Below, piece after piece: positions 3,821 through 59,218 of a stretch of 64,000 nucleotides of DNA. Made by a program: the position numbers and the translations under genes. Position 1 is the stretch's first letter. Each line of letters starts with the position of its first letter. The notes under the pieces are model-generated. The model saw only the letters and a program-made list of their open reading frames with translations, was not told the origin of the DNA and made no database searches. Origin of the DNA: Alphaproteobacteria bacterium UBA6149 (GTDB taxonomy: Bacteria > Pseudomonadota > Alphaproteobacteria > Rickettsiales > UBA998); NCBI GenBank assembly GCA_002423155.1, contig DIUV01000045.1, forward strand, positions 3,276 through 67,275, given 5' to 3'.

Positions 3821-3980
3821 TTCCCCCTCTCCCTCTGGGAGAGGGACGGGGTGAGGGAAGCCTAACTAAAATACAAAGCTTTCTGTCGCTATAATATGTT
3901 GATATTAAAACAACAAAATAGCAAAAAAATTTTATGGATAGTTCCCTCACCCCATCCCTCTCCCAGAGGGAGAGGGAGTT
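3821..3980. repeat. Family-A double-hairpin palindromic element (intergenic copy)
   Basis: The left arm (3821-3860, ttccccctctccctctgggagagggacggggtgagggaag) and the right arm (3942-3978) are near-perfect reverse complements. The same arms recur at 17014-17123, with a half copy at 32833-32857. Confidence 0.85.
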
Positions 3981-4184
3981 AGCCCTCATTTTTTGATATT
4001 TATTGGATAAATAAAAATCTGCCTGGTGGTAAGAAGTATATTTACAAAAATTTATTTACTGTTAAAAAGGGCAGGTTATTTTTTATCTCGTCTTTGGACA
4101 GGTATATATAGCACAAACGTCGCAATTATTATTGCGATACTTTTTTTAAGTTGCGAAGAGCAACTATTTTATCCAGGTGATCTT

Positions 4185-16442: not shown

Positions 16443-16862
16443 TTAGCCCATTGCAAATCCTTGGCTTTGTCTTGGAGCTTGAGAAACAACATGAGCAGGA
16501 GCAGAAAAATCTCCATAATCATGAACAGACACATCATTACATTTAAAACCTGATAAATTTACGCCTGACAATGCTGTGTTCAAAGAACTATTTTCGGACA
16601 ATGAAGGAGAGCGCTCAACCTGCGGTGTCGCAGCAGCCTCAATTTTTGGACTAGCTGAAGGAGACAAACTATTATCTCCACCAAAAGATGGAAGACTGTC
16701 TTTTAGTACCGCAACTCCATCCTTAATAGAAGAGGTAACACTGCTCATAGCACCAGAAAGAGCCTCACCCCATTCAGCCAAAGACTCCCCTATGGGCTTA
16801 TCCCACCAACCCGGTTTTAATGCGCTAAGTATCATCATATCAACAACCTTTCTTTTCCACAC
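16443..16862 (-). CDS. Hypothetical Ser-rich protein
   Basis: An ORF only. It is low-complexity and Ser-rich, with no recognisable motif. It is convergent with glnE. Confidence 0.3.
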   Translation of the reverse strand: MWKRKVVDMMILSALKPGWWDKPIGESLAEWGEALSGAMSSVTSSIKDGVAVLKDSLPSFGGDNSLSPSASPKIEAAATPQVERSPSLSENSSLNTALSGVNLSGFKCNDVSVHDYGDFSAPAHVVSQAPRQSQGFAMG

Positions 16863-16902
16863 TTCTCTACTTAACTTTAATATAGCAAATTTTAACTAAT
16901 CT

Positions 16903-17733
16903 TTGTATGACAATTTGATGACAATTAACCAAAACCACATAAGCAAAAATTTCTCCCAAGCTGCCCACCAATATGATGCGCATGCCCATTTACAAAAACA
17001 GGTGGCAGAAAACTCCCTCTCCCTCTGGGAGAGGGTCGGGGTGAGGGAAGTATCTGCAAATTCGAATTCTTTCTTTGTGTTGAAGCTTCCCTCACCCCAG
17101 CCCTCTCCCAGAGGGAGAGGGAGTTTAGCCCTTGACCTGGGCTGTGGCACTGGTTATCTATCGCAGCTCCTACCAAAACAAAAAATCTACCAACTAGATA
17201 TATCCGAGAACATGTGCCGCCTTGCCCAGCGCAAAAACCCGAGCATCTGCGCGGATGCCCATACTTTGCCCTTTGCAAACGCCAGCTTTTCGCTAATATT
17301 TTCCTCCCTCTGCCTGCAATGGGCAATCAACAAACCGAAAACATTGGAAGAAATCTACCGCGTCCTCCAACCCAATGCCCACGCCATCATCAGCGTACTC
17401 GGCACCCAAACCTTGCAAGAACTCCGCCAAGCTTATACCTGCGCGCACATTCCCTCCCCCCTATTAAATTTTTTAACCTTAGAAGAATGGAGCAACCTAG
17501 CGCAGACGGCTGGTTTAAAAATCCTCACCCAACATAGCGAAATAATCACCCAAACCCATGAATCTCCGCTGGCACTGATGCGCTCATTAAAAAACATCGG
17601 CGCCAATACCCCAAGCATTACCATTAAAGGACTAAACGGACGCCAAACCTTGCGAAAAGTTGAAAATGCCTATATTGGTAAGCAAGCCAGCTTTGAAGTA
17701 ATTTATTTAGTCTTACAAAAATGCCCCCTCTAA
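16903..17733 (+). CDS. bioC: Malonyl-ACP O-methyltransferase (BioC-type SAM methyltransferase) carrying an in-frame repeat insertion
   Basis: ISKNFSQAAHQYDAHAHLQKQVAE, then the SAM motif LDLGCGTGYLSQLL. It overlaps bioD by 13 nt. Codons at about 17014-17123 derive from the family-A repeat (LSLWERVGVRE...PSPQPSPRGRGS). Confidence 0.8.
   Translation: MYDNLMTINQNHISKNFSQAAHQYDAHAHLQKQVAENSLSLWERVGVREVSANSNSFFVLKLPSPQPSPRGRGSLALDLGCGTGYLSQLLPKQKIYQLDISENMCRLAQRKNPSICADAHTLPFANASFSLIFSSLCLQWAINKPKTLEEIYRVLQPNAHAIISVLGTQTLQELRQAYTCAHIPSPLLNFLTLEEWSNLAQTAGLKILTQHSEIITQTHESPLALMRSLKNIGANTPSITIKGLNGRQTLRKVENAYIGKQASFEVIYLVLQKCPL
17014..17123. repeat. Family-A palindromic element inside bioC
   Basis: Arms at 17014-17050 and 17087-17123 are reverse complements of each other and near-identical to the arms at 3821-3980. 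Confidence 0.85.
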
Positions 17734-18551
17734 ACAGAAAATTTTTCATCAGCGCAACCGGCACGAATATGGGCAAAACCTTCGTCACCTGCCTATTAAC
17801 TCGCCAATTAATCGCTAGTGGCGAAAAAGTCCGCGCTATTAAACCAGTAATCAGCGGATTTTCCGAGCCAAGCACGAGCGATAGCGGACTTTTGCTTGCT
17901 GCCCAGAATCTATCTTCGCATGACTTAGAAAAAATCTCCCCTTGGCGTTTTGCTGCGCCCATCAGCCCCCACGCAGCAGACAGCGAAAAAACCATTTCCC
18001 TTGATAAACTAACCGCTTTTTGCCAACCCAAAACGCAAGAGATATTACTAATCGAAGGCGCAGGCGGAATCATGACCCCCCTCACCGACCATGCCACCAA
18101 TCTTGATTGGGCAAACGAACTAAACGCGCAAATAATATTAGTAATCGGCGATTATCTGGGAACTTTAAGCCACACGCTTACCGCTATAGAAGCCATAAAA
18201 ACCCGTAACTTACCCATAGCGGCAGTTATAATAAATCAATTTACCGCAAGTAGCCAACCAAAGCAAAGTAACCAATCGCTAATTTCATTATTTTTTTCAC
18301 AACACTTTCCGTTGTCATCCCGCCGCAGGGCGGGATCCATGCCTAACCACGAACTGTTCAGCCAATTGATTGACATGGATCCCGCCCTGCGGCGGGATGA
18401 CAACAAAGAATTTGGAGAAAAAAACATACCTGATAAATTTACCAATACCCGACAAACCTTACAAACTTTCCACCCCCAGATAAAATTTATGCTATTACCA
18501 AAAGCCACAAAAAATGTTAAGCTACCTGACTTAACAGGAATATGCACATGA
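17721..18551 (+). CDS. bioD: Dethiobiotin synthetase carrying an in-frame long-form repeat insertion
   Basis: The N-terminal P-loop is FFISATGTNMGKTFV, followed by LLIEGAGGIMTPL. At 276 aa it is about 60 aa longer than a typical BioD, and the excess maps to the family-B element at about 18260-18450. Confidence 0.8.
   Translation: MPPLNRKFFISATGTNMGKTFVTCLLTRQLIASGEKVRAIKPVISGFSEPSTSDSGLLLAAQNLSSHDLEKISPWRFAAPISPHAADSEKTISLDKLTAFCQPKTQEILLIEGAGGIMTPLTDHATNLDWANELNAQIILVIGDYLGTLSHTLTAIEAIKTRNLPIAAVIINQFTASSQPKQSNQSLISLFFSQHFPLSSRRRAGSMPNHELFSQLIDMDPALRRDDNKEFGEKNIPDKFTNTRQTLQTFHPQIKFMLLPKATKNVKLPDLTGICT
18260..18450. repeat. Family-B nested palindromic element (copy B1) inside bioD
   Basis: The core at 18311-18404 (gttgtcatcccgccgcagggcgggatccatgcc ... 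catggatcccgccctgcggcgggatgacaac) is a perfect-looking inverted repeat. The left flank (accaatcgctaatttcattattttttt) matches the outer arm of copies B3/B8/B9. The right outer arm is degenerate, so the boundaries are approximate. Confidence 0.75.
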
Positions 18552-19156
18552 AAGAACAGCTCGAAAAATTACTAAAATGGCAGCCTAAACCTCTGTTCAG
18601 CTCCCGCCCAATAGAAGATTCACAAACAGGCATGTATTATGCCAGCACCAATGACCGAGTTTTTGCTTCGGTAATTGATACTGCATGGACATCTTTTTTA
18701 TTATTACCTTTATTCAGCTGGTTAGACCAATTATTCTTCACAGGAATGGACGCATCACAATTTCTACTTAGCCTGAGCACCGCCCCCAGCGTGCAAGAAA
18801 AACTAGAAATAATCCAAAATAGCGGCGCTATTAACCGCATATTAGGCAATAATTTAATACAAACCACCATCTTATCCGCCATCATTTTAAGCCTATGGTT
18901 TTACGGCGGAACCACCCCGGGTAAGTGGCTATTAAAAATGCGCATAGTCGATGCAAAAACAGGTGCGGCTCCCTCACGCAAACAATTTATAAAAAGGCTC
19001 CTCGGCTACATCCCCTCCGCCTTATTTTTCATGCTGGGATTTTTCTGGATTAGCTGGGACAAAAAACGCCAAGGCTGGCATGACAAAATCGCCAACACGG
19101 TGGTAATTAAAGAAAAAAAATGGTCGCATCCAAGGAAAAAGTATCAGCAATTCTAA
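18542..19156 (+). CDS. RDD-family membrane protein
   Basis: The C-terminal half (GKWLLKMRIVDAKTGAAPSRKQFIKRLLGY...GWHDKIANTVVI) has the RDD-domain pattern with TM helices. It overlaps the bioD end. Confidence 0.7.
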   Translation: MHMKEQLEKLLKWQPKPLFSSRPIEDSQTGMYYASTNDRVFASVIDTAWTSFLLLPLFSWLDQLFFTGMDASQFLLSLSTAPSVQEKLEIIQNSGAINRILGNNLIQTTILSAIILSLWFYGGTTPGKWLLKMRIVDAKTGAAPSRKQFIKRLLGYIPSALFFMLGFFWISWDKKRQGWHDKIANTVVIKEKKWSHPRKKYQQF

Positions 19157-19332
19157 AACCATTTTTTATCCGCCAAAATATCCTTGTCATACCAGCGTAG
19201 GCTGGTATCCATGCCTATCCGCAAGAGAAATTTCTCAATAAATTATAGAATTCACCGTTATAGATAGGCATGGATACCGCCCTGCGGCGGTATGACAACG
19301 GATATTTTGGCGGATAAAAAATAGTTTTAGAA
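19151..19332. repeat. Family-B nested palindromic element (copy B2)
   Basis: The outer inverted repeat is ttctaaaaccattttttatccgccaaaatatcc (19151-19183) against ggatattttggcggataaaaaatagttttagaa (19300-19332). The inner core is gtcataccagcgtaggctggtatccatgcc / ggcatggataccgccctgcggcggtatgac. Confidence 0.85.
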
Positions 19333-19364
19333 TTGCTGAAAAAGTAGGGTTTAAAAAAGTAAGA

Positions 19365-25624: not shown

Positions 25625-26401
25625 ATGCAAAAAATCGGCTGTGTAGCAGACATTACAAAAAAAGCGCAAGATACCATGCGTGAGTTAATCTCGCGTTATA
25701 ATGTCATTGATTTAATGGCGAATAAACGCAGCAATGTCGATGTAATCGTCGTACTCGGCGGTGATGGCTTCATGCTGCAAATGTTACATAAATTCATCGA
25801 ACGCAAAACTCCAATTTACGGCATAAATTGTGGAACCGTGGGCTTTTTGATGAATAATTACAATATCAATGAACTGCCCGACCGCATCAACGGCGCAAGC
25901 GAAACTCGCCTACACCCACTTTCCATGTACACTCGCTGCGTAAATGGCAAAGAAAGTGAAACCCTCGCCATAAATGAAGTTTCTCTCTTCCGCGAAGGTC
26001 GCCAAGCTGCCAAAATCCGCGTAACTATCGACCATGTAGTGCGCTTACAAGAATTAATTGGTGATGGCATATTAGTTGCCACCCCCGCAGGCAGTACTGC
26101 TTATAATTTCTCCGCTGGCGGACCCATCATCCCTCTGGGCGGCAACGTAATCGCCCTCACCCCACTTGCCCCCTTCCGCCCCAGACGCTGGAAAGGCGCA
26201 TTATTAAACCATAATGCCTGCGTAAATTTTGAAATATTAGAATCCGATAAACGCCCAGTAAGTGCAGTAGCTGATTTCACCGAAATCCGCGACGTAATCT
26301 CGGTTGCCATTAGCGAACAACGCAAAATCAGCATTCCCTTATTATTCGATTTAGAACATAATTTGGAAGAGCGGATTACCAAGGAACAATTTATTTATTA
26401 G
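25625..26401 (+). CDS. nadK: NAD kinase
   Basis: VVLGGDGFML, ATPAGSTAYNFSAGGPI. Start chosen at the ATG at 25625, because the TTG at 25589 lies inside the upstream terminator. Confidence 0.88.
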   Translation: MQKIGCVADITKKAQDTMRELISRYNVIDLMANKRSNVDVIVVLGGDGFMLQMLHKFIERKTPIYGINCGTVGFLMNNYNINELPDRINGASETRLHPLSMYTRCVNGKESETLAINEVSLFREGRQAAKIRVTIDHVVRLQELIGDGILVATPAGSTAYNFSAGGPIIPLGGNVIALTPLAPFRPRRWKGALLNHNACVNFEILESDKRPVSAVADFTEIRDVISVAISEQRKISIPLLFDLEHNLEERITKEQFIY

Positions 26402-28291: not shown

Positions 28292-28332
28292 ATAACTATA
28301 AAACAATGAGAAGAAAGGCCAAAAATAATTAG

Positions 28333-28526
28333 CAGGGCAAAAGCACCAATCGTTAATTTTGTCTTTTTGCGATAAAATTCACCATTGTCATACCGCTGTA
28401 GAGCGGTATCCATGCCAAACCATTGGCTTTTCAGCTTGTTGATAGGCATGGATACCGTCCTGCGACGGTATGACGATGGATAATTTAGTAAAAACAACGA
28501 AATTAACGATTTATGATTTTGCCCTG
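28333..28526. repeat. Family-B long-form nested palindromic element (copy B3)
   Basis: A palindrome of about 194 bp, from cagggcaaaagcaccaatcgttaattttgtcttttt... to ...aacgaaattaacgatttatgattttgccctg. The core is gtcataccgctgtagagcggtatccatgcc / ggcatggataccgtcctgcgacggtatgac. Confidence 0.85.
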
Positions 28527-28649
28527 AAAATAATTATAAGAAAAGATTGACTTTTATATTCCCGACCATTAGAAGAAACCCTCTTTTAAAAGCTTAGAGC
28601 TTGTTAAAAAGTTCTTATTTTAAGAAATATTATTATTTTAAGAAATAAG

Positions 28650-40226: not shown

Positions 40227-40429
40227 GGCTCGCTCGCACTACCCGACACTTTTTATTTTTTTTCGTGCTCTCCGTCGTCATCCCCGCCTTATGCGGGGAT
40301 CTAGGGCTACAAATTCGGTCTTTTTTGTGTCCCGAGATCCCCGCACAAGGCGGGGATGACAACCGAGTGTGTTGGTATTTAATAAACATTTTATAGCACA
40401 AAAAAAGTGTCGGGTAGTGTGAGGCTCGC
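40227..40429. repeat. Family-B variant nested palindrome (copy B5)
   Basis: The outer inverted repeat is gcactacccgacacttttt / aaaaagtgtcgggtagtg. The inner one is gtcgtcatccccgcc..ggggatct / agatccccgc..ggcggggatgacaac. It is preceded by a family-C fragment (ttggaattgctatagg, 40213-40229). Confidence 0.8.
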
Positions 40430-41046: not shown

Positions 41047-41305
41047 GCAATTTCCACCCTACACGACAGTACCGTTAATATTACGAAGCTATTGAATGGT
41101 AAGTATTTATTTCTTAAAATCGCTCTCTCCGTCGTCATTCCTGCTGCGGCTAAGAATCTCTTTTTCCGCTTGTGAGTGCCTCGTTTAGGGCGAAAGAGAT
41201 TCTTAGCCGCAGCAGGAATGACGACGGAGAGAGCGAACTTTTTTATTGTATTTCAATATATAAATGCCTTGTTAATACTACTGTCGTGTAGGGTGAGCAA
41301 TTTCA
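41047..41305. repeat. Family-B variant nested palindrome (copy B6)
   Basis: The outer inverted repeat is caccctacacgacagta / tactgtcgtgtagggtg. The inner one is cgctctctccgtcgtcattcctgctgcggctaagaatctcttt / aaagagattcttagccgcagcaggaatgacgacggagagagcg. Confidence 0.8.
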
Positions 41306-41562
41306 CCAATTATTAAGATCTTAACTATTGTTTTTCTATACACAACAATGCCATCAATAACAGATCCATAATATTGATATATAATATTTTTTATGAAGAA
41401 TACATCCATCGTAATCCCGCCGCAGGGCGGGATCCAGGTTTAGCCACATACTGCGTATTCGTGGTTAGGCATGGATCCCGCCCTGCGGCGGGATGACAAC
41501 GTCTTGTTCTATAACAATACTAAAAAACAATAGTTAAAATTTTAATAATTGGTGAAATTTCC
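41297..41562. repeat. Family-B nested palindrome (copy B7), abutting B6
   Basis: The outer inverted repeat is gcaatttcaccaattattaagatcttaactattgttttt / aaaaacaatagttaaaattttaataattggtgaaattt. The core is cgtaatcccgccgcagggcgggatcc / ggatcccgccctgcggcgggatgacaacg. Confidence 0.8.
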
Positions 41563-51333: not shown

Positions 51334-51522
51334 GGCAATTTCACCAATCGTTAATTTTGTCTTTTTGCAATAAAACTCTCTATTGTCATGCAGCACGTAG
51401 AGCGGCATCCATGCAAAACCATTGGCTTATCCGCTAGTTGATAGGCATGGATACCGCCCTGCGGCGGCATGACAATAGATATTTTAGTGAAAAAAGACAA
51501 AATTAACGATTGGTGAAATCGC
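51334..51522. repeat. Family-B long-form nested palindromic element (copy B8)
   Basis: ggcaatttcaccaatcgttaattttgtctttttg ... caaaattaacgattggtgaaatcgc. The core is gtcatgcagcacgtagagcggcatccatgc / ggcatggataccgccctgcggcggcatgac. Confidence 0.85.
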
Positions 51523-58897: not shown

Positions 58898-58985
58898 AAT
58901 ACCTAACCCCTATAGTAGTTTTTGTGCAATGCATATAAAACCGCAAGTAACCGCAGAAGTAAAGCAAAAATATGCTTTTTATCAA

Positions 58986-59174
58986 GGCGATTTCCCCAAT
59001 CGTTAATTTTGTCTTTTTGTAATAAAACTCTCCATTGTCATGCAGCACGAAGAGCGGCATCCATGCCAAACCATGGGCTTATCCGCTAGTTGATAGGCAT
59101 GGATACCGTCCTACGACGGTATGACAAGAGATATTTTAGTGAAAAAATGTCAAATTAACGATTGGTGAAATCGC
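58986..59174. repeat. Family-B long-form nested palindromic element (copy B9)
   Basis: ggcgatttccccaatcgttaattttgtctttttg ... gtcaaattaacgattggtgaaatcgcc. It is nearly identical to B8. Confidence 0.85.
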
Positions 59175-59218
59175 CCTGTGCTTTTTATGCATTAGTTCCG
59201 CACTGGATATTATCTAAA

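Follow-up and report, generated by a model that had tools for sequence, protein, structure and literature searches.

An inverted BoxC repeat pair in the reading frame of an alphaproteobacterial bioC gene, and the association of BoxC repeats with DUF559 nuclease genes

Introduction

How does a palindromic repeat come to lie inside the reading frame of a biosynthetic gene, and what becomes of the gene? The question is raised by bioC in a stretch of 64,000 nucleotides (nt) from Alphaproteobacteria bacterium UBA6149 (GCA_002423155.1, contig DIUV01000045.1, positions 3,276 to 67,275; hereafter the window), in which the open reading frame (ORF) for malonyl-ACP O-methyltransferase runs through a palindromic element. 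A preliminary description, made from the sequence alone, had assigned the element to a repeat family A and had compared it with the Rickettsia palindromic elements (RPEs). We found that its arms belong to BoxC, a known repeat, here in a hitherto unreported setting. The explanation that we consider best, at a probability of roughly 0.7, is that a non-autonomous, ORF-less BoxC pair, related to elements that carry a DUF559 nuclease gene, entered bioC and was tolerated there.

BoxC repeats, also named PIT or TM, have puzzled researchers for some 30 years and have so far been explained by DNA structure only. They were reportedly described earlier, by Bachellier et al. in the 1990s and by Hoyne et al. 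in 2000. Three 9-nt blocks plus loops form a unit of 33–37 nt in all (PMC4666352), which is highly conserved and is present in more than 260 genomes (PMC4666352; PMC5100583). The copies in E. coli K-12 are all intergenic and sometimes occur as inverted pairs (PMC4666352; PMC5100583), which make up 5 of the 18 E. coli loci (PMC4666352). No function or mobility gene is known for BoxC, and neither paper reports an associated protein gene (PMC4666352; PMC5100583); Holder et al. 2015 never met mobility functions in its surroundings and suggested either instability or horizontal transfer (PMC4666352). BoxC DNA folds as a triplex in vitro and the E. coli loci are prone to rearrangement (PMC4666352), Kaplan et al. 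2016 named the motif a 'G-quadruplex-hairpin-duplex switch' (PMC5100583), and according to the summary of earlier in vivo work given in PMC4666352, BoxC/PIT did not act as a promoter or terminator and did not block polymerase.

The bioC element is an inverted pair of BoxC units

The features of bioC and of the repeat pairs in the window are as follows.

16918..17733, + strand: bioC ORF, malonyl-ACP O-methyltransferase, 271 aa from the ATG at 16918, with the TTG at 16903 as in-frame alternative start
17010..17126, no strand: whole palindromic element, set by the limits of the inverted repeat, encoding about N32 to S69 of BioC
17015..17047, + strand: left BoxC/TM unit, CCCTCTCCC-TCT-GGGAGAGGG-TCG-GGGTGAGGG, read as SLSLWERVGVR
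17048..17088, no strand: A/T-rich spacer of 41 nt, present in this copy only, with no ORF of its own, read as EVSANSNSFFVLKL
17089..17121, − strand: right BoxC/TM unit, inverted, with 2 mismatches, read as PSPQPSPRGRG
17122..17133, + strand: right flank AGTTTAGCCCTT, encoding S-L-A-L at the start of strand beta1
3825..3976: second TM(+)...TM(−) pair, intergenic (units 3825–3857, +, and 3944–3976, −), with a different, longer A/T-rich spacer of 86 nt

The element measures 117 bp, or 39 codons, in frame within bioC, which agrees with the 110–120 bp given in the preliminary description, and the frame runs through it without interruption: the translation reads ...AENSLSLWERVGVREVSANSNSFFVLKLPSPQPSPRGRGSLALDLGCGTG..., the string quoted there, directly before LDLGCGTG. 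Peptides of BioC that span the insert would include ...QVAENSLSLWER... and ...GSLALDLGCGTGYLSQLLPK. The arms of the inverted repeat (17010–17050 and 17086–17126) are 41 nt each, are 95% complementary and enclose 35 nt, and the RNA of the element was predicted to fold into a single long hairpin of −97.2 kcal/mol, against an average of −44 for shuffled sequences (z = −13.4). The 33-nt arm occurs four times in the window at no more than 2 mismatches, with 0 occurrences expected, so that it is a repeat and not a product of chance. Further GGGTGAGGG 9-mers at 26154, 35423 and 45303 were rejected as copies of the repeat, being chance matches in the ordinary coding sequence of genes.

All four units in the window consist of three 9-nt blocks (CCCTCTCCC, its complement GGGAGAGGG and the purine block GGGTGAGGG) with short loops, as in BoxC, and the left arm differs from E. 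coli TMECO no. 20 (Table 1 in PMC4666352) in the hairpin loop only. By sequence, these comparisons identify the repeat as the known intrastrand-triplex motif BoxC/PIT/"TMECO type B" and not as a new family, so the label of family A falls away. The accompanying statement that the repeat is unrelated to RPEs in sequence holds, since the arms are BoxC and an Rfam scan at gathering thresholds returned two tRNAs only and no match to the element; judged by BoxC identity and Rfam, and not by alignment to an RPE consensus, the arms do not belong to an RPE family. When the 40-aa peptide of the insert was the query of a word-indexed search of proteins, 2 candidates had words in common with it and neither of them scored.

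The same motif is widely distributed. A scan with GGGAGAGGGNNGGGGTGAGGG, covering one genome per GTDB species, found at least 120 loci with the BoxC motif in many phyla, and Proteobacteria, Planctomycetota, Verrucomicrobiota, Acidobacteriota, Cyanobacteria, Chloroflexota and others were among the matches listed. The BoxC of E. coli resembles the repeat described here in its near-identical sequence, its inverted pairs and its occurrence across many phyla; it differs in being intergenic only, whereas the bioC pair is intragenic and lies within a reading frame.

Beyond the inverted repeat, both BoxC pairs of the window have in common a right flank, AGTT(T)AGCCCT, at 17123–17133 in bioC and at 3977–3986 (AGTTAGCCCT) in the intergenic copy. 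This shared flank hints at an asymmetric end of the element or at a target preference. With two copies to compare, the flank may still be a part of the element, in which case the element might also supply the S-L-A-L of beta1.

The composition of the element bears on how it can lie in a gene. The units have a G+C content of about 73%, compared with about 42% for the genome. Of the six frames of a single unit, one contains a stop (TGA within GGGTGAGGG), the remaining frames encode linker-like peptides rich in Pro, Ser, Gly, Glu and Arg, and stop-free frames number four of six in the bioC element and one of six in the intergenic copy. The element would thus survive in a coding region because it is compatible with an ORF, having a short stop-free spacer and units that stop in only one frame of six. 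With its terminal inverted repeats, small size and lack of coding capacity, it also fits the description of a MITE (miniature inverted-repeat transposable element).

Orthologues and independent assemblies support a lineage-specific insertion

The closest non-identical BioC proteins in our protein collection are 36–39% identical to that of the window. Two close BioC proteins, P0002 and P0003, are encoded within bioA-bioB / bioF-bioH-bioC-bioD-RDD clusters (loci L127 and L129), and the order bioC-bioD-RDD, common to these loci and the window, indicates that they are true orthologues. Neither of these syntenic orthologues has the element, the extra residues of the window protein fall exactly at it, and in L127 the linker at the position of BioC residues 32–69 reads RLAAILSPYLSVDAT. 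The spacing between the Q of LQ and the D of motif I (LDxGCGTG), Q26 to D73, is 46 aa in the window; in 101 homologues its median is 21 aa (range 10–32), with 20–22 aa in 90 of them. BoxC-type peptides were found in none of the 101 BioC homologues. The sequence of the BioC structure 8x8i (PDB) aligns to residues 1–37 and resumes from residue 70, and the left arm, NSLSLWERV, sits where homologues read xNxLxxLLx.

These alignments show the segment to be a lineage-specific in-frame insertion. The insertion was also a replacement, in which 39 aa came in and about 14 native residues went out, so that the protein is about 25 aa longer on balance. The lost residues are the second half of the helix that follows LQxxV together with the linker into beta1, and the loss of about 14 codons may have been a part of the same event. 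The extra loop of about 40 aa that had been proposed is thus right as to the residues encoded (39) and too large as to the net gain, some native residues having been replaced and the left arm being predicted to lie in a helix. The proposal of an RPE-like invasion of coding regions gains support, since the element is in frame and absent from orthologues and since other genes have been hit in the same way (see below).

The segment might instead be an ancestral or lineage-specific loop of BioC that resembles the repeat by chance, an alternative raised in the preliminary description. MAFFT is able to match ENSLSLW and SPQPSP to xNxLxxL and SPxxSx of the orthologues. However, the arms match the 33-nt motif exactly or with 2 mismatches, the motif recurs between genes in the same window and is the same as in E. 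coli, the arms make a 41-nt inverted repeat, and the repeat-like segment is absent from L127, L129 and all 101 homologues, so we regard a native loop as very improbable.

An assembly artefact, in which a repeat would have joined two contigs into a chimera within bioC, appears just as improbable. A short JGI contig (3300012990, L121) does end within the left arm, as is typical at repeats; but a 43.8-kb JGI contig from another sample (3300001605) agrees with the window at zero mismatches over 20.6 kb and base for base across both junctions of the element, the identical 271-aa BioC is recorded in the NCBI, ENA and GEM assemblies, and the two flanks are the two halves of BioC in one frame. The presence of the same DNA in several assemblies makes an artefact unlikely.

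BioC outside the insert is intact and is predicted to fold

The model TIGR02072 matched the bioC ORF with E = 2e-49 and 168.5 bits, in two stretches parted by the insert, and Pfam assigned Methyltransf_11/25. No stop or frameshift was found, either across the element or in the 232 codons outside it. All invariant and near-invariant columns of BioC are kept in alignments of 20 and of 102 sequences; upstream of the insert these include F12, Y19 and Q26, and downstream of it D73, G75, G77, D94, W135 and E168. The features by which a BioC is recognised are present, namely motif I for binding of S-adenosylmethionine (SAM), the N-terminal FxxAAxxYDxxAxLQ helix, the bioC-bioD context and the BioC fold, and the ORFs overlap by 13 nt (bioC/bioD) and 10 nt (bioD/RDD), as in a coupled operon.

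AlphaFold2, run with the 102-sequence alignment, gave a mean predicted local distance difference test (pLDDT) of 88.9 and a predicted template modelling score (pTM) of 0.87, with values above 90 in the core. The best fold matches in the PDB were the BioC structures of A. baumannii, 8x8i and 8x8j (target-normalised TM-score 0.74–0.76). In the model, a helix of residues 24–41 extends into the left arm (NSLSLWERV), residues 42–69 form a low-confidence loop with pLDDT of about 50, and beta1 begins at residue 70. The part of the insert past the left arm is thus predicted to be a disordered surface loop. A surface loop, which the preliminary description had put up for checking, may be formed by residues 42–69 if this low-confidence part of the model is right, and the left arm is predicted to join the helix. 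As to whether the gene is otherwise disrupted, which had also been raised, we found no stop or frameshift, retention of the conserved residues and a confident fold outside the insert.

The course of events that we favour would be the following. In this lineage, a miniature inverted BoxC/TM pair, as selfish DNA, would have landed in bioC where the N-terminal helices meet beta1 of the Rossmann fold, and either that event or later trimming would have removed about 14 native codons, leaving 117 bp in frame. The left arm would then carry on the helix in place of its missing native second half, the following 28 residues or so would be a floppy surface loop leading into LDLGCGTG, the methyltransferase core would be untouched, and the insert would be tolerated without being useful. 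That the insert is translated as a peptide and that BioC is active are both presumed in this account; we judge the chance that bioC is still functional and tolerates its insert to be somewhat better than even.

Several observations weigh against a tolerated insert in a working gene, and many of them would fit a young pseudogene, whose frame would have stayed open solely because the length of the element is divisible by three and most of it lacks stops. Since four of the six frames of the element are stop-free, an open frame is cheap to keep. The arms have hardly diverged, so the insertion may be recent, there may have been too little time for decay, and the intact ORF would be only a weak sign of selection. 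The score of 168.5 bits lies below the curated NCBIfam cutoff of 184.95 for the TIGR02072 equivalog. About 14 native residues of the conserved helix and linker were lost, the loop directly adjoins SAM-binding motif I, and the confidence of AlphaFold2 in the left arm is partly due to how the alignment places it. At the RNA level, the 41-bp stem (−97 kcal/mol) would be a good substrate for RNase III and an obstacle to translation. Searches of the 64 kb by tblastn with the orthologous proteins did not find bioA, bioB, bioF or bioH; bioC is preceded by glnE and an ORF of 139 aa of unknown function (16443–17733 spans this neighbourhood), and only bioC-bioD-RDD are still together. Compared with the operons of the orthologues the bio cluster is broken up, so that the biotin pathway may be decaying, and the adjacent bioD has been invaded too, as one might expect under relaxed selection.

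Against a pseudogene, the 232 codons outside the element contain no stop, frameshift or lost invariant residue, F12, Y19 and Q26 are kept in the very helix upstream of the insert, the operon-style overlaps are retained, and the fold is predicted with high confidence. In addition, both bioC and bioD remain in frame, each with a probability of about 1/3 by chance on length alone. We consider inactivation of bioC unlikely, though well worth keeping in mind. A tolerated insert would also mean that such elements push real enzymes under the cutoffs of family models, as happened to BioC here.

Translated BoxC units recur in other genes

The 137 motif matches in the at least 120 GTDB loci were checked for long open frames across them, and ten were tested by Pfam. 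In most of the ten, domains of the host protein were found on both sides of BoxC. Units lie inside HsdR (just before Walker A), IspG, the lipoyl linker of Lpd, Mfd, LigA (with BoxC splitting its adenylation domain), a YgiQ-like radical-SAM protein, the linker of an IcmF-like mutase and MetRS. Loci with a single or paired translated BoxC come from unrelated phyla (L042, L117, L053, L005, L061, L098 and L012). The insert in Mfd consists of two inverted units, and the two frames in which they are read are those used in bioC (..RERVGVRV..PSPQPSPRSRGEG..; ERVGVR...PSPQPSPR). As far as sequence can tell, intragenic and translated BoxC units are recurrent. In both BoxC papers all E. coli copies are called intergenic and none is intragenic (PMC4666352; PMC5100583), and the present loci contradict the textbook view, based on E. 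coli, of BoxC/TM as strictly intergenic.

This recurrence also bears on whether the insert has been co-opted in bioC, as a hairpin or triplex tuning bioC-bioD, as a switch by recombination or excision, or as a new functional loop. Its secondary structure is very stable, BoxC forms triplexes in vitro and E. coli loci with BoxC rearrange readily (PMC4666352), and the left arm is predicted to stand in for a structural helix. Yet neither a sense-strand terminator nor a convincing promoter was predicted at the element, the in vivo work summarised in PMC4666352 speaks against effects on promoters, terminators or polymerase passage, the loop is predicted to be disordered, and the element recurs in unrelated genes. 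Passive tolerance fits this recurrence better than a role specific to bioC, and we hold co-option to be improbable.

BoxC units flank genes of a DUF559 nuclease subfamily

In a Variovorax MetRS locus (L002, 1306–1795), a DUF559 (PF04480) domain stands between two inverted BoxC units, all in frame, and in an Acinetobacter locus (L018, 821–1469) a free-standing DUF559 gene lies between BoxC units. We then examined 80 metagenomic loci with YcjD-like DUF559 genes (L131–L210), the nearest relatives of one BoxC-flanked copy, which were chosen by protein pattern alone. A BoxC unit lies within 250 bp of the gene in 56 of the 80. The density of units is about 25-fold higher near the gene (119 units in 36.8 kb) than farther away (27 in 214 kb; Poisson p about 1e-120). 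The full TM(+)-DUF559-TM(−) arrangement, with TM(+) about 50–100 bp upstream of the gene and TM(−) about 20–50 bp downstream, is present in 34 of the 80 loci at lengths of 396–650 bp. The two ends of one element are more alike than ends across elements (0.85 vs 0.72, p = 1e-14), and variant ends preserve the three-block pattern. These data establish, at the level of sequence, the association of DUF559 with BoxC ends.

Full elements can be free-standing or lie inside other genes. The one in L145 is free-standing and has its own start and stop codons. Others are in frame in MetRS (a second locus), an HrpA-like helicase, a Type ISP enzyme, an MmeI-like restriction-modification enzyme and DNA methyltransferases, and no intein or intron module was recognisable in these in-frame full elements, which lie in the following stretches.

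Stretches with in-frame full elements: L134, 314..3259; L138, 1553..5215; L136, 2..3448; L141, 2..2686; L193, 815..5002; L133, 1658..4177

In E. coli K-12 (L123, NC_000913.3, 1351204–1351760), the last codons of ycjD, a DUF559 gene (SPSP and the stop), are formed by a degenerate BoxC block, and downstream of the gene the 3' end of ycjD is met again as a duplicated remnant, after which comes TMECO no. 9, about 160 bp away.

Since the bioC pair is arranged like TM(+)-DUF559-TM(−), the bioC element would be a miniature, ORF-less derivative of such elements. A MITE should have a longer counterpart that ends in the same way and codes for a protein, and the 34 loci, L002 and L018 provide one, with DUF559 as the candidate mobiliser; the nuclease would act in trans on the bioC element, which is MITE- or REPIN-like. 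More broadly, and with a confidence that stops just short of even odds, BoxC/TM may be the terminal inverted repeats of an unrecognised pan-bacterial class of mobile elements whose protein is the YcjD-like DUF559; its full and ORF-less forms, both capable of being read through, would spread into essential genes in frame, needing neither intron nor intein, and the bioC insert would be one miniature among them.

It may be instead that DUF559 does not move BoxC, and that the nuclease homes into or is retained by pre-existing BoxC, which would spread by structure-driven recombination or by an unknown transposase. A number of results tell against DUF559 as the mover or loosen its link to bioC. No direct repeat that would mark a target-site duplication was seen at either window copy or at the 34 full DUF559 elements, a search made by eye and with no empty site to compare. 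The window of 64 kb has no DUF559 gene. The value of 70% holds for the subfamily and not for all DUF559, as the 80 loci are the closest kin of a single copy with BoxC flanks. The BoxC unit nearest to E. coli ycjD is rearranged and in a non-canonical orientation, which makes it loose support. E. coli has 23 BoxC units (PMC4666352) and a single ycjD, and Holder et al. saw no genes for mobility in the neighbourhood of these units (PMC4666352).

Favouring DUF559 as the mover, on the other hand, are the 25-fold enrichment with its fixed TM(+)-gene-TM(−) layout, the co-variation of the two ends of an element, and the presence of one protein gene with many ORF-less copies, which is the pattern of REP sequences and their RAYT genes. 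Moreover, a table in PMC3424549 groups the homing endonuclease I-Bth0305I with the Vsr/DUF559 fold, so that this Vsr-like fold includes a nuclease of mobile DNA. We think it unlikely, though by no means negligibly so, that DUF559 is a mere passenger of BoxC.

Neither BoxC paper reports a protein partner, and we found no literature link between DUF559/YcjD and BoxC; here the two are linked. We consider this association the part most worth following up. If the link holds, it offers a testable mechanism for the spread of the motif across phyla, and it would account for the frequent 'PLPLGEGRGEG' and 'PSPQPSPRGRG' peptides and for the DUF559 fusions in annotations.

Comparison with other repeats and mobile elements

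RPEs are palindromic, in-frame inserts in genes of Rickettsia, predicted to be located at the protein surface (Ogata et al. 2000, 2002, as summarised in PMC10969869). Like them, the bioC element is a palindrome of about 100–150 bp, in frame in a housekeeping gene of an alphaproteobacterium, with the ORF preserved, and its insert may likewise prove to lie at the protein surface, where the low-confidence part of the model puts it. It differs in that its sequence is unrelated and its host is not Rickettsia, its arms being a pan-bacterial G/C-rich motif and RPEs being specific to their genus; in addition, its insertion replaced native residues, and it has in DUF559 a candidate protein partner, while RPEs are not known to have a putative partner. 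The FtsZ encoded in the window is alphaproteobacterial in type, and its nearest relatives, 81–86% identical, come from metagenome-assembled genomes labelled Alphaproteobacteria or Rickettsiales bacterium. In-frame colonisation by palindromes is best known from Rickettsia, and here it involves a far more widespread repeat in a relative of that group.

Repetitive extragenic palindromes (REPs) and the REPINs that they form are short hairpins, found as singles or inverted doublets, and the gene of their associated transposase, RAYT, is flanked by the repeats (Nunvar 2010, PMC2817692; Ton-Hoang 2012, PMC3333891). BoxC is like REP/REPIN-RAYT in combining many ORF-less copies with a small, often single-copy protein gene. 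The RAYT protein is an HUH Y1 transposase, whereas the partner of BoxC is a PD-(D/E)XK Vsr-like nuclease, DUF559/PF04480; no GTAG or CGTC tag was seen at the ends of BoxC elements; and REPs are extragenic, whereas BoxC elements can sit inside genes and be translated.

Intragenic MITEs, such as the enterobacterial repetitive intergenic consensus (ERIC), also called intergenic repeat units (IRU), with in-frame ORF fusions, are known from Delihas 2007, as cited in PMC10969869. These are small inverted-repeat elements that sometimes form in-frame fusions, as the bioC element does, but they are of a different family, the partner of the bioC element is not the transposase of an insertion sequence, and no target-site duplication was seen at bioC. 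Homing endonucleases and inteins resemble the DUF559 elements in that a small nuclease sits in conserved genes (MetRS, HrpA, restriction-modification genes) with the frame kept, and I-Bth0305I shares its nuclease fold class with DUF559, as tabulated in PMC3424549. Inteins and introns, however, have a splicing module; with none seen in the BoxC-DUF559 inserts, the insert would stay in the protein, and the bioC copy has no nuclease gene.

A second in-frame insert in bioD and other palindromic repeats of the window

The gene bioD, which overlaps the end of bioC, carries a palindromic insert of a different family, and the same family recurs between genes.

18291..18424: in-frame palindromic insert in bioD (17721–18551, 276 aa), adding about 45 aa
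19144..19339, 28324..28535, 40233..40423, 41299..41559, 51335..51522 and 58983..59178: nested intergenic repeats of the bioD type

The core of the bioD insert is GTCATCCCGCCGCAGGGCGGGATCCATG and its inverse, and past the insert the native C-terminus of BioD (...LLP...LPDLT...) restarts. The window protein has 276 aa, whereas the syntenic orthologues, at 228 and 224 aa, and the BioD of E. coli, at 224–225 aa, all lack the insert. That two adjacent genes have in-frame palindromic inserts either backs an RPE-like invasion of coding regions or reflects relaxed constraint on the bio genes.

The bioD-type family has six copies in the window, five of them intergenic and nested within larger inverted repeats, and in three outer inverted pairs the arms follow the pattern CACCAATCGTTAATTTTGTCTTTTT. 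Nested palindromic elements, from at least four families, are thus densely spread in the genome. The last codons and the stop of the RDD gene (18542–19156) are supplied by the palindromic element at 19144–19339, the two overlapping at 19144–19156. Yet another family is represented at 41120–41236 by an intergenic, perfect 44-nt inverted repeat (100% complementary, with a spacer of 29 nt).

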